Shown here piece by piece: positions 6,870-16,265 of a stretch of DNA of 17,896 nucleotides. Source of the stretch: a virus. Taxonomy: Duplodnaviria; Heunggongvirae; Uroviricota; Caudoviricetes. The DNA lies in the IMG/VR virus record IMGVR_UViG_2778261639_000005; one strand, 5' to 3'. How positions within the stretch are numbered: the first letter of the stretch is position 1; the number at the start of each line of letters is the position of its first letter. The translations under genes and the position numbers were made by a program. The notes under the pieces are model-generated. The model made no database searches. It saw only the letters and a list, made by a program, of their open reading frames with translations, and had not been told where the DNA came from.

Positions 6870-6895
6870 AGGCTACCTTCGGGTGGCCTTTTTTA
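6870..6895 (+). terminator. Intrinsic terminator-like hairpin with UUCG tetraloop and T-run
   Basis: AGGCTACC(6870-6877)-TTCG-GGTGGCCT(6882-6889) forms an 8-bp stem with one G-U pair, followed by TTTTT. Lies 20 nt after the head morphogenesis stop. Confidence 0.6.
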
Positions 6896-8966: not shown

Positions 8967-8986
8967 CGGGGCTTCGGCCCCATTTT
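8967..8986 (+). terminator. Intrinsic terminator (GC stem, UUCG loop, T5)
   Basis: GGGGC(8967-8971)-TTCG-GCCCC(8976-8980) followed by ATTTTT, 10 nt after the capsid stop TAA 8955-8957. Confidence 0.65.
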
Positions 8987-10754: not shown

Positions 10755-11717
10755 GTGAGTTCAGGTGCAAAGGTTATCTCGGCATTTATCCGGGAGACGG
10801 TTGCAGGCACTACGCCAGCAAGTGGTGACTGGAGTTTATTAAAACGCACAAGCTGGGGAGTAAAACCCACCCAGAATAAAGGCGAAAATAATGAGATTGG
10901 TGGCTCCCGGATGGCTCAGGGGGCGACGCCTGGCACTGTGGATGTCGGCGGTGATGTTGGTACCAAATTTCGCTGGGGTCAACATGATGATTTTCTTGCA
11001 TCCTGTTTCGGCGCGGAATGGTCAGGCGATTCTCTGACAATGGGGAATGAGCGAATAACATTTTCTCTGGCGACCTATGCGTCCGATGTCGGAATTGCCT
11101 CTGTCGTCAGAGGAGCGCAGGTTGGCTCATGGAAAATGCAGATCCCTAACGACGGCGATATTACAGCGACCGTAACCTTTGCCGGACTGGACTGGGAATC
11201 AAAGGCCGATGATACGAATTTTATCAAAGGCGAACCTGTGGATAGTGCAGGAAAGCTACGTTATTCGTTTAAGGAGGTTTCAGCAGTAAGCCTGAATGGT
11301 GTTGCCGGAGGTAACGGTTTTTGTATCGACAGTTTTGATATTCAGTTCGATAACAAACTCCAGACACAGCGTTGTATCGGGACTGGCTCGCCTTATGCAG
11401 GAGCAAATATTCCGACTACTTTTACACCGTCCGGTACGGTGACGCTTTCATGGTCTAAAGCCGCGTGGGAAATCTGGAGTAAAACACTGACTGGAGAAAC
11501 AGTTCCGTTCAGCTTCACGCTTTCGAATGGAGAGGGGGCATACACTTTCAGTTTCCCGAAGGTTCAGGTGTCAGGTGAATGGCCTGATGGGGGTAATAGC
11601 GACATTATCCAGGTTCAATTGAGCATTACCGCAGCAGATGAAGCACCTACGATAACCAGAAAAAAAAATTCCCCGGCTGCCGTGATCGCAAAAGCCAGTG
11701 CTGAGGCGATTAGTTGA
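10755..11717 (+). CDS. Major tail (tube) protein
   Basis: GTG start 10755 with GGAGG SD at 10744-10748; 320 aa, Gly/Ser/Thr-rich and beta-rich; immediately upstream of the chaperone and tape measure genes. Confidence 0.6.
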   Translation: MSSGAKVISAFIRETVAGTTPASGDWSLLKRTSWGVKPTQNKGENNEIGGSRMAQGATPGTVDVGGDVGTKFRWGQHDDFLASCFGAEWSGDSLTMGNERITFSLATYASDVGIASVVRGAQVGSWKMQIPNDGDITATVTFAGLDWESKADDTNFIKGEPVDSAGKLRYSFKEVSAVSLNGVAGGNGFCIDSFDIQFDNKLQTQRCIGTGSPYAGANIPTTFTPSGTVTLSWSKAAWEIWSKTLTGETVPFSFTLSNGEGAYTFSFPKVQVSGEWPDGGNSDIIQVQLSITAADEAPTITRKKNSPAAVIAKASAEAIS

Positions 11718-11765: not shown

Positions 11766-12227
11766 ATGAGGTTATGGATGTTTATTCTTAATCAGAAAAT
11801 TATCATTGGTGGAGAACGCTGGTTTACGCCAATGAAGGACTTAAAACCTGTAGACGGGTTAAAACTGTTGGTGGCAAGCAGCGATAACGATCAGTATCGC
11901 TCCCGTAATGCATTAATCCGTCGCCACATTGAGAAAATGGATGCCAGTTTGCACGTCGGAACGAAGGAGTTTGATATTTCAAAGGTTTCCGAGGTGGATT
12001 CTGTTGATGATTTACTCATTGATAATGCCGCTCGTTATCTGCTGAAAGACTGGAAAGGGGTTGGTGAACTGGTTAATGGTGTTGAGGTTGCACTGGAATA
12101 TACGGCAGAACGAGGGATCGCGCTGCTTAAGCAGAATCCAGAGTTGTACTGGCAGATCCTTGCAGAAGCAGCCAGCATCGCCCAGGGTAAAGAGCAGCAG
12201 AAGCAGGATACGATAAAAAAGCCATAG
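11766..12227 (+). CDS. Tail assembly chaperone (G-like)
   Basis: ATG 11766 with GGGGGA SD 8 nt upstream; 153-aa acidic protein between major tail and tape measure genes; a slippery heptamer sits 4 nt before its stop TAG 12225-12227. Confidence 0.6.
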   Translation: MRLWMFILNQKIIIGGERWFTPMKDLKPVDGLKLLVASSDNDQYRSRNALIRRHIEKMDASLHVGTKEFDISKVSEVDSVDDLLIDNAARYLLKDWKGVGELVNGVEVALEYTAERGIALLKQNPELYWQILAEAASIAQGKEQQKQDTIKKP

Positions 12228-12535
12228 CTGCCCAGCGGTGGTTATCGGAGTTCGGGGGAGAAAGGGGGGAAAAGGCAAGATGGAAGCGAGAAAAACTCAG
12301 GTTGCCACCGATACCGGAACCAGAAATAGACCCGGTGCTTAAGGAGTTGTTGTACGCCTATTCGGTAATATCCCGTGCCCGACGTTATGCTGGAATGGCT
12401 GGGGTGCCTTTGCCTTTATCTCTGACAGAGATAAATGAATATTTAGCCACTCATCCGGTATTGATTGAGCGCGATGAATTTGAAGCAGTGATCTTTGCAC
12501 TGGATGACCAGTATTTTCAGGAGCAGTGTGTGTAG
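11766..12535 (+). CDS. Tail assembly chaperone frameshift fusion (GT-like), predicted -1 shift at 12215-12221
   Basis: The -1 frame is open from 12191 to the TAG at 12533-12535 and overlaps the end of the G-like ORF. The A_AAA_AAG heptamer at 12215-12221 is phased as AAA AAG in the zero frame. The track ORF 12302..12535 is the downstream part of this frame. Confidence 0.5.
12215..12221 (+). other. Programmed -1 ribosomal frameshift slippery site A_AAA_AAG
   Basis: Heptamer AAAAAAG with correct zero-frame phasing near the 3' end of the chaperone gene, and an open -1 frame downstream. Confidence 0.55.
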
Positions 12536-12655
12536 TTGTTAATTACGTACACTCTGTTACAGAGATGTGATGGTGTCTTTAATTAAATCGATGATGCTCC
12601 TGGAGAAAAGCATTGCGTGGCCTCGTAATCGCTATATCTACTATTATGTCGCCTG

Positions 12656-12680
12656 AAACCCACTTCGCGGTGGGTTTTTT
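12656..12680 (+). terminator. Terminator-like hairpin between the chaperone and tape measure genes
   Basis: AAACCCAC(12656-12663)-TTCGCG-GTGGGTTT(12670-12677) gives a perfect 8-bp stem followed by TTT, 20 nt upstream of the tape measure SD AGGAG (12687-12691). Confidence 0.55.
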
Positions 12681-12700
12681 GTTGTCAGGAGTTTTAATAA

Positions 12701-15700
12701 ATGGCAGAGCAAACCTCGCGTCTCGCAATAATTATTGATAGCACTGGAGCGAAAAATAATGCTGACAATCTGACCTCCTCATTAGTCAAAATGACGCAGG
12801 CTGGGGAAACTGCTGCAAATAGCGCAGGGAAAGTGACTAAGGCAACAGAAGATGAGAAGAACGCGCTCGCAAAATTAAAAGCAGCTATTGATCCAGTTGG
12901 TGCCGCAATTGATACTGTCGGTCGACGCTATTCTGAATTAAAGAAATTTTTCGATAAAGGGCTTATTGATAAAGAAGAATATGAATTTCTTGTCCGTAAA
13001 CTTAATGAAACCACAGAGGAATTGAGCGGGGTTGCGCAAGCGCAGAGAGAAGCCGAGAAGGCCGGAAAACTTGCTGCCGCCCAGCAGGAAGCGCAGGCTC
13101 AGGCCTTTCAAAGAATGCTGGACAAGATCGACCCTCTGGCTGCGGCGCTAAGAAATCTTGAACAACAGCATGATGAACTTAATGCTGCGTTTGCATCCGG
13201 GAAAATAAATGGTTCTCAGTTTGAGAATTATAGCCGAAAAATACAGGAAACACGGCGAGAGCTTACCGGAGAGGCTCAGGCAGAGCGAGAAGCAGCAAAA
13301 GCGCATGATGAACAGGTTGTTGCTTTGCAACGTCTGATTGCTCAACTTGATCCTGTCGGAACTGCTTTTAATCGTCTGGTAGAACAACAGAAACAGCTCA
13401 ATGAAGCAAAAGCTAAGGGGATGCTTTCTCCTGAAATGTATGAGGAGCTTTCTGGAAAACTTCGTGCTATGCGGAGTGAGCTTGAGGTTACTCAATCACA
13501 ATTAAGCAAAACCGGAATGTCGGCAAAACAAACGGCTTTTGCTATGCGCATGTTGCCTGCACAAATGACGGATATTGTTGTTGGGTTGTCCACTGGTCAG
13601 TCGCCATTTATGGTGTTAATGCAGCAGGGCGGCCAGCTAAAAGATATGTTCGGTGGGATTGGCCCGGCGATCAAAGGTGTAGGTTCTTATGTGCTGGGAT
13701 TAATTAATCCTTTTACCCTGGCCGCAGCAGCCGTTGGGGTCTTAGGACTGGCTTACTATAAAGGCTCTCAGGAGCAGGACGAATTTAATAAATCTCTTAT
13801 TCTTACCGGAAATCAGTTGGGGACAACCAGCGGGCAATTGGGCGATATAGCTCAACGTGCCGGGAATGCGGCTGATTCGACAACTGGTGCTGCGGCGGCA
13901 GTATTAAATCAGCTTGTGCGTTCGGGAAAGGTAGCGAGCAGTTCGCTGGAGCAAGTGACGACAGCGATAGTAAAAACGAGCGAAGTAACAGGAATATCAA
14001 CCGAACAACTGGTTAATGACTTCAATGAAATTGCAAAGGATCCTGTCAGTGCCATATCAAAACTTAATGATCAGTACCATTTTCTGACACTTGCGACTTA
14101 TAACCAGATTAAGGCGCTACAGGATGAAGGGAACCAGCAGGAGGCCGCCCGCATTGCGACAGAAGAATACTCATCCTCAATGATCCAGCGCACCAACCAG
14201 ATTAAAGAAAATCTTGGTTATCTTGAGACTGCATGGAAAGCTGTCGCAGACTCCGCAAAATGGGCATGGGATTCCATGCTGGATATTGGCCGTGAGGCCT
14301 CCCTTGATCAAAAAATCTCAGATGTTCTCCGTCAAATTGATGAAATAGAAAAAAATACCCGACCCGGAGTTTTCGGGTTAGGTGGCATTGGAGATGGCGG
14401 AGCTCAAAATAAAAGGCTGGCACGATTAAAGCAGCAATTGGGCGTACTTCAAGCAGAAAAAATTGCTCAGGACGTACTAAATTCATCAATAAACGATTAC
14501 AACAAGCGACAACAGGAAGGAATTGAACTCAGACAGAGAGCAGATGCCTTTTCAAAACAATATCAGACCCGGGAGCAGCAGAGAGCTAGTGAACTTGCAA
14601 AACTGGAAAAGCTAAAGAATCAGTATTCAAAGGAAGAATATAATAATCTTATCGCTCAAATAAATGAGCGTTATAAAGATCCAAAGCAACCAAAGGCGAA
14701 AGGTTATTCTGATGATGCAGCCCAACGAATGATTGATCATCTGAATCAACAGAATGCGTTACTAAGTTCACAAGCTGAGTTGACCGTTAAATTAAGTTCC
14801 TCTGAACAGGAACTGGTTAAGTGGCGTCAGCGGATTGCCGACCTAGAGTCACGACCATCAACGAAATTAACCCAGGATCAGAAATCGCTTCTCTTACACC
14901 GGGAAGAAATAACCGCGTTGATGGAGAAAAATGTTGCGATTGAAAAAAATAACAGGCTAATCAAGGAATCCGCCGAAATAACAGCATGGCGTGATTCATT
15001 GCAGGCTTCGATTGATAATCGTCAGCAGGGGTATGATATTCAGATTGCTGGTTATGGGGTTGGCGATAAAAATCAGCAACGCCAGCAGGAATTACTGCGG
15101 ATTGAACATGGATATAACAATCAGCGTCTGCAACTTGAACGTGACTATGCAGATAAATCCCGTGGAATGTCAGATCATGTTTTTCAAGAGAAAATGCAGG
15201 CTCTGAATGATGCTCTGGAACGGGAAAAAGAAATTGTCAGACAGAAAAACGAGCAGCTCGATATTCAGGCAGGAGACTGGGTTAGTGGTGCCTCCCAGGG
15301 ATTCAATAACTGGCTGGATGACACTAAGGATATCAGTGAGCAGATAAAATCAACCACGACTCAGATGTTTGATGGGATGACCGATGCGCTGGGTGATTTT
15401 GTCACGACAGGCAAGGCAAATTTTCGTTCTTTCGCTACTTCCGTGATTTCGGATCTTAGTCGAATAGCATTAAAGGCTTCAATTACTGGGATTTTCGACA
15501 GCATTAGTAACAGTTCTTCTGGGGGGATTTTAGGAACTATCGGGAGTGCTATTAGTAAATTTATTCCGAATGCAAAGGGCGGTGTTTATGAGTCTCCGTC
15601 ATTGAGCACGTATTCGAACGGTATTTATGATTCCCCGCAATTTTTTGCTTTTGCAAAAGGGGCTGGTGTTTTTGGTGAGGCTGGACCGGAAGCCATTATG

Positions 15701-15934
15701 CCATTAACACGAACTTCCGATGGTTCTCTTGGTGTCAGAGCTATTAATAGTAAAAGTGGTAATGGAGGCGGAGATATTACCTATGCCCCTGTATACCAAA
15801 TCACTATTCAAAATGACGGCCAGAATGGAGAGATTGGCCCTCAGGCAATAAAAGCACTTATGGGGATGGTTGATCAGCGGGTGCAGGGCAATCTGTTAAA
15901 TATGCGACGTGATGGGGGAATGTTAAGTGGCTAA
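12701..15934 (+). CDS. Tail tape measure protein (lambda H-like, 1077 aa)
   Basis: Long coiled-coil N-terminal half, central hydrophobic segment [39 protein letters not shown], and C-terminal [16 protein letters not shown]...RRDGGMLSG, which resemble lambda gpH as I recall it. Sits after the chaperone pair and before the M-like gene. Confidence 0.9.
12863..13510 (+). repeat. Three tandem protein-level repeats of about 65-75 aa in the tape measure N-terminal region
   Basis: Repeated pattern (I/L)DP(V/L)(G/A)...EL(S/T)G(V/E)AQA(Q/E)REA(E/A)KA at roughly aa 57-121, 137-201 and 209-270 of the tape measure protein. Confidence 0.5.
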
Positions 15935-16265
15935 TACGGAAGAATTTCACTGGTTACCAGAGGATGGAATGAAAACAGAAAATAAACCATCGATAAAAAC
16001 TGTAAGATTTGGTGATGGTTATGAGCAACGAAGTCCAAATGGACTTAATCATTCTCTGCGCGTTTTCACCTGTGATTTCAAAGTTGAGGCGAATGAACGT
16101 GATTCATTTGAAAAATTTTTAGCCCGGCATGAAGGCTATAAATCTTTTTTTTGGCGCCCGCCGGGTATTAACAGAAAAATCAGAGTGGTGTGTCGAACGT
16201 GGTCAGCGACAGAACATATCACCTATACCGATTTTTCGTGTCAGTTTGACGAAGTGGTGATCTGA
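15927..16265 (+). CDS. M: Minor tail protein M (lambda gpM-like)
   Basis: Motif [16 protein letters not shown] and ...KSFFWRPP...FDEVV match lambda M as recalled (VRFGDGYSQRAPAGLN ... KSFLWTPP ... FEQVV). GTG start overlaps the tape measure stop by 8 nt. 112 aa. Confidence 0.85.

Follow-up and report, generated by a model that had tools for sequence, protein, structure and literature searches.

Between the tail assembly chaperone gene and the tape measure protein (TMP) gene of a Rac-like prophage lie 165 bp without annotation, at the right end of which a terminator-like hairpin stands in front of the TMP start. What is this gap, and what does such a hairpin do at the entrance to the TMP gene? 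Comparison of the locus with its relatives leads us to regard the gap, with reasonable confidence, as the Rac-lineage form of a moron slot between G/GT and TMP, the right 45 bp of which consist of a Rho-independent terminator and the TMP ribosome site, and this assessment includes the mechanism proposed below.

Location of the gap in a Rac-like prophage

The window (the whole stretch of DNA that was analysed, 17,896 nt) is the structural half of an intact Rac-like siphovirus prophage, with the gene order terS, terL, portal, head morphogenesis, scaffold, major capsid, connectors, tail tube, G, TMP and homologues of M, L and K. It is 100% identical to Salmonella phage SPF_0923 over the stretch tested. 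The layout of the intact prophage is lambdoid, in that genes for DUF1367, DUF1364 and DUF1133 proteins are followed by holin, lysozyme and spanin genes, then by trkG, and then by the structural genes through the tail fibres. The DUF1133 protein occupies the Q position, 5′ of the lysis genes and of a late operon of more than 30 kb. One gene of the window is unexpected for a lambdoid prophage: a 317-aa ORF 5′ of terS (825-1778, + strand) matches phrog_842, beta-glucosyl-HMC-alpha-glucosyltransferase (E = 1.5e-103), and in the intact prophage it comes after the trkG moron and ynaK.

The genes that border the gap are the following.

10755-11717: tail tube gene
11766-12227, + strand: tail assembly chaperone G (phrog_313, E = 4e-46; ORF table)
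12213-12219, + strand: slippery heptamer A_AAA_AAG, −1 frameshift producing GT (read from the sequence)
12220-12535, + strand: T-frame extension of the GT fusion, with the TAG stop at 12533-12535 as left border of the gap (translation; phrog_1189 and phrog_3817, tail chaperonin)
12701-15934, + strand: TMP, 1077 aa (phrog_24, E = 0)

The chaperone gene has the lambda-type G/GT organization, with the slippery heptamer near the end of G and a −1 frame that is open to 12535. Homologues of the T part are present in 49 phage records, and the T domain has homologous counterparts in phages of Klebsiella, Erwinia, Pseudomonas and Acinetobacter. The N-terminus of TMP carries a motif that is common to the tail-module family, as seen when the N-termini of relatives are compared. 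Since the −1 frame is open to 12535 and TMP starts at 12701, the non-coding gap comprises 12536-12700, in accordance with the 165-bp spacer reported in the preliminary description of this DNA.

The gap is 100% identical to positions 1426289-1426453 of E. coli K-12 MG1655, between ydaY and ynaA (tmpR) in the cryptic prophage Rac, where the K-12 annotation has no feature. At a threshold of at least 95% identity it is found in 1046 of the 5426 complete E. coli genomes (about 19%), in a single copy each and in a constant context. IS1 has inserted independently three times at different points of the gap, at about 12624, 12686 and 12696 (E. coli ET734, KMi012 and one IMG/VR contig; L004, L003 and L071), so that it resembles a site that IS1 prefers, or one in which its insertion is tolerated.

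The annotation of this region is incomplete in several records. The G/GT frameshift product is annotated neither in ON032529, which lists two separate hypothetical proteins, nor in RefSeq. In K-12, ydaY is a truncated G copy that corresponds to the C-terminal 119 codons of chaperone G, and the 474 bp annotated as intergenic between ydaY and ynaA hold the entire T-frame ORF, the G/GT region being NC_000913.3 1425621-1426288 (L002 5622-6289).

Two further observations concern the left border. The T frame contains a mosaic breakpoint at about 12425, where the divergence of loci L088, L090, L094 and L097 from the window changes from about 9% (11776-12425) to about 2% (12425-13050). In addition, a sigma-70-like site (TTAACA, 18 nt, GAAAAT; 12542-12513, − strand) stands at the left edge of the gap, directed leftward and antisense to the T frame.

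The base composition of the gap is inconspicuous. Its GC content of 0.42 is also found in the flanks, which vary between 0.42 and 0.50 on either side, and there is no sharp step. The deviating composition expected of a moron is absent, and the proposal that the gap marks the left edge of an AT-rich TMP block is weak. The real step is found near 16200, at the border of TMP/M and L/K, where the GC content increases from about 0.43 to 0.55-0.63, an indication that Rac-type proximal tail genes are joined there to lambda-like distal ones.

Anatomy of the hairpin before the TMP gene

Both the sequence and the predicted fold confirm that a perfect 8-bp terminator-like hairpin with a U-tract, previously placed at 12656-12680, directly precedes the TMP Shine-Dalgarno sequence (SD). 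Its elements are as follows.

12656-12677, + strand: terminator hairpin, perfect 8-bp stem AAACCCAC (12656-12663) / GTGGGTTT (12670-12677), loop TTCGCG
12675-12685, + strand: T-tract TTTTTTGTTGT, in partial overlap with the 3′ stem arm (sequence; family alignment)
12687-12691, + strand: TMP SD AGGAG, 9 nt 5′ of the ATG at 12701 (sequence; GGAG kept at the same position in relatives)

The element has the features by which intrinsic terminators are recognized, namely a GC-rich stem-loop on the transcribed strand and a T run directly 3′ of the stem, which in relatives is T5-T8. Specifically, the core of the stem is CCCAC/GTGGG, and T6-G-TT at 12675-12683 and TTTTTTGTT stand directly after the hairpin. 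The hairpin can alternatively be drawn with 10 pairs and a 4-nt loop (12655-12678), and in the common hairpin variants the loop is the tetraloop TTCG. The fold of 12650-12685 has an energy of −13.3 kcal/mol, with z = −2.5 against dinucleotide shuffles. The window as a whole holds no excess of terminator-like sites (23, compared with 17.7 ± 4.5 expected), so the significance of the hairpin derives from its conservation in relatives and not from enrichment within the window.

In K-12 Term-seq, there is no 3′ end at the hairpin (14264xx). The + strand of the cryptic Rac prophage appears to be barely transcribed there, with a Rho-termination region at 1425351, and the absent 3′ end therefore says nothing on termination.

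Conservation of the hairpin among relatives

Relatives of the locus were collected by tblastn with the T domain and by scans of genome and viral contig collections. The resulting 127 loci were deduplicated to 61 distinct TMP upstream regions with the conserved N-terminus M-x-E-Q-x-S-R-L-A-I, from Escherichia, Klebsiella, Pantoea, Mixta, Citrobacter, Providencia, Siccibacter, Scandinavium, Erwinia, Pseudomonas and Acinetobacter. Alignment of the upstream regions with MAFFT followed by RNAalifold gave no consensus structure, stems of unequal length and register being misaligned, and per-sequence hairpin detection with shuffle and positional controls was used instead.

Of the 61 regions, 58 have a GC hairpin and T-tract whose end is 17-27 nt (mode 22-23) upstream of the TMP start codon, compared with 1.4 ± 1.1 in dinucleotide shuffles, and the hairpin-bearing regions span at least 10 genera and three bacterial families. 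The position is specific: when whole loci are scanned, such a site has its end in the interval from −40 to −10 relative to the TMP start in 57 of the 61, and in this interval the density of hairpins is about 31 per kb per locus, compared with 0.2-0.7 elsewhere upstream. Because base pairing was itself the criterion of detection, the 100% pairing of the inner stem follows automatically, and the informative part is the diversity of pair types. In particular, there are 19 distinct inner 5-bp stems, with three to five canonical pair types per inner position, two-sided changes included. Compared across the relatives, the hairpins keep their structure and not their sequence.

The leader that follows the hairpin is also conserved in part of the family. 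Klebsiella and Pseudomonas phages have nearly the same form, TTTTTTAT(T)GCC(C/T)GGAGA, at −25 to −5 of the TMP start, and its TTTTTTATTGCC part recurs in Acinetobacter phages, although the T domains of these three groups of phages are only 41-65% identical to that of the window. The Rac leader, TTTTTTGTTGTCAGGAGTTTT, is the odd one out, and GCC is a conserved element of the other leader form.

A slot of variable content between chaperone and TMP genes

The size of the slot, measured from the T stop codon to the TMP start codon, divides the 61 distinct sequences into three groups.

36-46 bp, 9 distinct sequences: empty, hairpin abutting the T stop codon
163-165 bp, 9 distinct sequences: Rac lineage
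403-3091 bp, 43 distinct sequences: cargo

The assumption that chaperone and TMP genes are normally adjacent is thus not borne out in this tail-module family, only 9 of the 61 distinct junctions being empty. The suggestion of a recombination event at the junction fares better, as the junction is a recombination or insertion site that holds from zero to six extra genes in the relatives. The hairpin is present in all nine empty slots and in slots of up to 3091 bp. In the empty slots (Erwinia phage Gungnir39; Scandinavium, Pseudomonas and Acinetobacter prophages), the hairpin and T-tract stand at the same distance from TMP as in the window, but the T stop abuts the hairpin, whereas the window has 120 more bases. 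The comparison with relatives that had been recommended to reveal an insertion identifies 120 bp in excess of the empty slots, upstream of a terminator-like hairpin found in nearly the whole family; the slot of the Rac lineage is thus close to empty.

The larger slots contain one to six ORFs, mostly co-oriented with the operon (92 on the + strand versus 18 on the − strand). Their Pfam families are Ail/Lom, Imm_superinfect, KilA-N, SocA/Panacea antitoxin, YafO toxin, zinc ribbons and GNAT acetyltransferases, a gene content that is the one expected of morons. PADLOC gave no matches to the cargo ORFs. A sigma-70 scan found no cargo promoters and likewise missed the promoter of HK97 gp15, which makes the scan uninformative.

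Klebsiella phages ST16-OXA48phi5.1 and ST974-OXA48phi18.2, Pseudomonas phage phiPSA1 and Acinetobacter phage TRS1 exemplify the cargo-bearing loci, sharing with the window the T domain and the TMP N-terminus. The cargo-bearing slots of the family have the hairpin, the T-tract and the GGAG site directly before TMP, as in the window, but carry one to six genes in 0.4-3.1 kb and the family leader in place of the Rac one. Two IMG/VR contigs (L112 and L122), with slots of 669 bp, are the only ones in which the single cargo ORF (188 aa) is on the minus strand. They also belong to the small number of loci where the hairpin in front of TMP is degenerate, and this counts in favour of the present reading.

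A slot at the equivalent position is known in HK97, the gene 15 moron element of which was reportedly described by Juhala et al. 2000 and Cumby et al. 2012. HK97 gp15 was the first element to be called a moron, and it sits between the chaperone and TMP genes (PMC3594210). In the HK97 record, GT is followed by a 57-bp lead-in, by gp15 (62 aa) and by a putative terminator, with TMP 12 nt further on. As in the window, a short non-coding lead-in is thus followed by a GC hairpin with a T-tract and, a few nucleotides on, by the TMP start, and in HK97 the cargo lies in between. Specifically, the HK97 hairpin is GACCCGC-tatcaa-GCGGGTT, followed by T8, and the TMP ATG is located 12 nt past the annotated terminator. 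The HK97 slot, however, holds a real gene for a 62-aa membrane protein, which is reportedly expressed from the prophage, whereas the window has 120 bp with no credible gene. Furthermore, the N-terminus of HK97 TMP is unrelated to that of the window's family, so the likeness to HK97 is one of architecture and not of descent.

Set against what is expected of a moron, the gap gives a mixed picture. It contains extra DNA between genes that are adjacent in relatives (165 bp, compared with 36-46 bp in the nine distinct empty-slot relatives), and it ends in a hairpin with a T-tract (12656-12683) that would serve as its own downstream terminator. As to a protein-coding gene, the sole candidate is an ORF of 28 or 29 aa, which does not behave like a gene (see below). 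A sigma-70-like site on the + strand of the gap was not found by a scan that also misses the HK97 gp15 promoter region, nor was a promoter-like site on that strand seen by eye.

Whether the hairpin belongs to the tail backbone or arrives with the cargo is a question on which the sequences give mixed indications. On the backbone side, every empty slot has a hairpin, and the stem ACCCGC/GCGGGT occurs in both empty and filled slots of Erwinia, Pseudomonas and Acinetobacter. On the cargo side, four different stems occur within one TMP cluster that shares an identical leader, and three members of Rac's own TMP cluster (L099, L100 and L127) carry a gene of 178-185 aa together with another hairpin and another leader. 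Some of the likeness between stems may be convergent, CCCGC/GCGGG being generic for terminators and present also in the unrelated HK97 slot.

Proposed role of the hairpin

The most likely role of the hairpin, as read from its anatomy and position, is that of a boundary terminator; termination at this site, its efficiency and the mode of read-through are predictions from sequence. In a lysogen, the hairpin would stop transcripts that start upstream, from slot cargo or from stray promoters, and thereby spare the TMP and distal tail genes. During late transcription, which by analogy with lambda is probably antiterminated, it would be read through wholly or in part. If late termination were partial, the message for tube and chaperone would keep a protective 3′ hairpin, and less RNA would extend over the low-copy TMP and tip genes. 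A device that acts on transcription into TMP, as had been put forward, is plausible in light of a terminator-like hairpin placed directly before the TMP ribosome site. The persistence of the hairpin in empty and filled slots alike argues for a function, and at the level of sequence the roles of insulator, attenuator and RNA stabilizer look the same.

With a terminator at the right end of the slot, any gene that lands just upstream would be insulated automatically, and this would explain why cargo accumulates there. The arrangement gives a simple sequence rule for locating prophage cargo: a hairpin 17-27 nt before TMP, upstream of which zero to six lysogenic-conversion genes are swapped. The tail-module family to which the rule applies spans Enterobacterales, Pseudomonas and Acinetobacter. 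Moreover, the boundary-terminator reading accounts for an unannotated 165-bp gap in about one fifth of complete E. coli genomes, K-12 included.

A more far-reaching possibility, which we put forward tentatively and consider less probable than not, is that the hairpin, the U-tract and the leader form a regulatory module of the tail backbone that predates the cargo. Such a module would attenuate or stabilize late RNA at the step from tube and chaperone to TMP and tip genes, its U-rich tract may enhance TMP translation, and the site upstream of it would be a landing pad. If this were true, it would alter the classical picture of the moron as a self-contained unit of promoter, gene and terminator, and it would account for a hot spot at this junction all the way from Escherichia to Acinetobacter. 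The 120 bp of Rac would then represent either cargo that has decayed or a short RNA that is produced exclusively in the late phase of infection. To a specialist, the fixed position of the hairpin, its presence in empty slots and the conserved leader might be the sole mildly surprising part of these results. The family could also serve as a test system for the origin of moron terminators, which may come with the moron or already be resident, and for a possible role of such terminators in the stoichiometry of tail gene expression.

As a boundary terminator, the hairpin would have parallels in other late operons. The late gene clusters of SPP1 are delimited by stem-loops (PMC6316719), and putative terminators are annotated around the major tail gene of HK97. 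Like the window's hairpin, these are co-oriented intergenic GC hairpins with T-tracts at the border of high-copy and low-copy structural genes, and the predicted terminator of the window does not differ from them in kind. The window has two further strong hairpins on the + strand, AGGCTACC-TTCG-GGTGGCCT with T5 (6870-6889, before the scaffold gene) and GGGGC-TTCG-GCCCC (8968-8981, directly after the major capsid gene); together with the one at 12656, all are located at borders of gene groups.

The left 120 bp of the gap

The remainder of the gap, to the left of the hairpin, contains one ORF that had been considered as a gene.

12536-12655, no strand assigned: left 120 bp of the slot, non-coding filler confined to the Rac lineage (unlike any cargo of relatives)
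12567-12656, + strand: ORF of 29 aa (GTG 12567) or 28 aa (ATG 12570), TGA at 12654-12656 (ORF listing; judged a non-gene)

The 120 bp occur only at one locus and in one context, as determined by distant BLAST searches of E. coli genomes and phages and by an exact-core scan of viral contigs, and they are therefore not a mobile or repeated element. They show no similarity to the cargo of the relatives, and BLAST found no homologue outside the Rac lineage. An apparent conservation of the 120 bp beyond that of synonymous sites in the flanks was withdrawn, as the whole block to the right of the breakpoint at about 12425, coding sequence included, is about 2% divergent. Specifically, the divergence of the more distant lineage drops at that breakpoint and stays low into TMP, and the one or two differences per 120 bp in the gap fit the block.

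The uniqueness of the 120 nt, in which no sign of constraint is seen, and the mosaic breakpoint just upstream are what one would expect if the entire gap, hairpin included, were a functionless recombination scar. The three IS1 insertions point the same way, in that disruption of the gap is tolerated in prophages, maybe defective ones. Neutral scars, however, do not have a hairpin and T-tract at the same distance from TMP in almost all relatives, with many different stems that all pair, and we consider this explanation quite improbable.

Similarly improbable is a repression of TMP translation by the left part of the gap, in which CUCCUG (12597-12602) would pair with CAGGAG of the SD (12686-12691) in read-through RNA. 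The minimum-energy fold of the gap does contain a long-range helix of this kind, enclosing the terminator hairpin, and the whole gap has z = −2.3, but the fold of 12590-12710 is no better than those of shuffled sequences (z = −1.2). Furthermore, A12687T, present in 8 of the 33 Rac-lineage sequences, breaks a pair and is not compensated at 12601, and the relatives have no equivalent. The same segment has another resemblance: CTCCTGGAGAAAAGCA at 12597-12612, complementary to the real SD, resembles the family TMP leader CC(C/T)GGAGAAAAG(C/T)A and could be a relic of an older TMP start or a chance match, with borderline statistics. As a duplicated old TMP leader it scored z of about 2.6 under strict scoring and was equalled by 52 of 150 shuffles under permissive scoring, and this candidate was dropped.

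An sRNA of 100-140 nt that ends at the terminator, made from its own promoter or cut from the 3′ end of the GT message, is very unlikely. Enterobacterial sRNAs, including Hfq-type sRNAs derived from 3′ UTRs, usually end in a hairpin with a U-tail, and the 120 nt, hairpin and leader resemble one exchangeable unit, relatives in the same TMP cluster differing in cargo, hairpin and leader. Hfq-type sRNAs differ, however, from the gap, for which K-12 data show no discrete transcript and Rfam no family, and which lacks both a conserved seed and a structured body. Specifically, Rfam gives no match for the gap at the gathering threshold and, at an E-value threshold, a weak match of the hairpin alone to the sroH terminator (14.7 bits, compared with 80), and the fold of the 120 nt is no better than those of shuffles (z = −0.5). 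The lack of a promoter-like site on the + strand is weak evidence against an sRNA, as the scan also misses the HK97 moron promoter. The complete K-12 Term-seq tables for three growth conditions show no 3′ end on the strand of the gap within 1423000-1427999; nearby they list only a Rho-termination region at 1425351 (+) and another, antisense, at 1426769 (−). Conservation of the 120 nt, confined to the Rac lineage, is that of the surrounding mosaic block. An independent sRNA, one of the two products originally envisaged for the spacer, is thus not supported by fold, family, promoter or 3′ end.

The other product, a peptide of 28 or 29 aa encoded by a mini-moron, is extremely unlikely: the frame is indeed open and its end coincides exactly with the foot of the hairpin, and HK97 gp15 in the equivalent slot is also small, but the ORF has no SD before GTG 12567 or ATG 12570 and no PHROG match, the peptide MVSLIKSMMLLEKSIAWPRNRYIYYYVA is charged throughout and has no membrane-spanning or other hydrophobic stretch, and the tables of small ORFs from E. 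coli K-12 ribosome profiling, which cover the lysogenic state, have no entry for it. Variation among the 33 Rac-lineage sequences (ATG to ATA in four, TGG to TGA in one, Pro to Leu in one and one synonymous change) is not protein-like, as neither start and frame are conserved nor are changes mostly synonymous. On the two strands together, six ORFs of 20 aa or more overlap the gap, and this one is unremarkable among them.

The K-12 Term-seq and ribosome-profiling results, which apply to a cryptic prophage in lysogenic growth, argue against a constitutive sRNA or peptide in the lysogenic state, and both of these speculative products are removed from consideration. We read the left 120 bp as most probably filler, or a remnant without function, from cargo exchange, and not as a gene.
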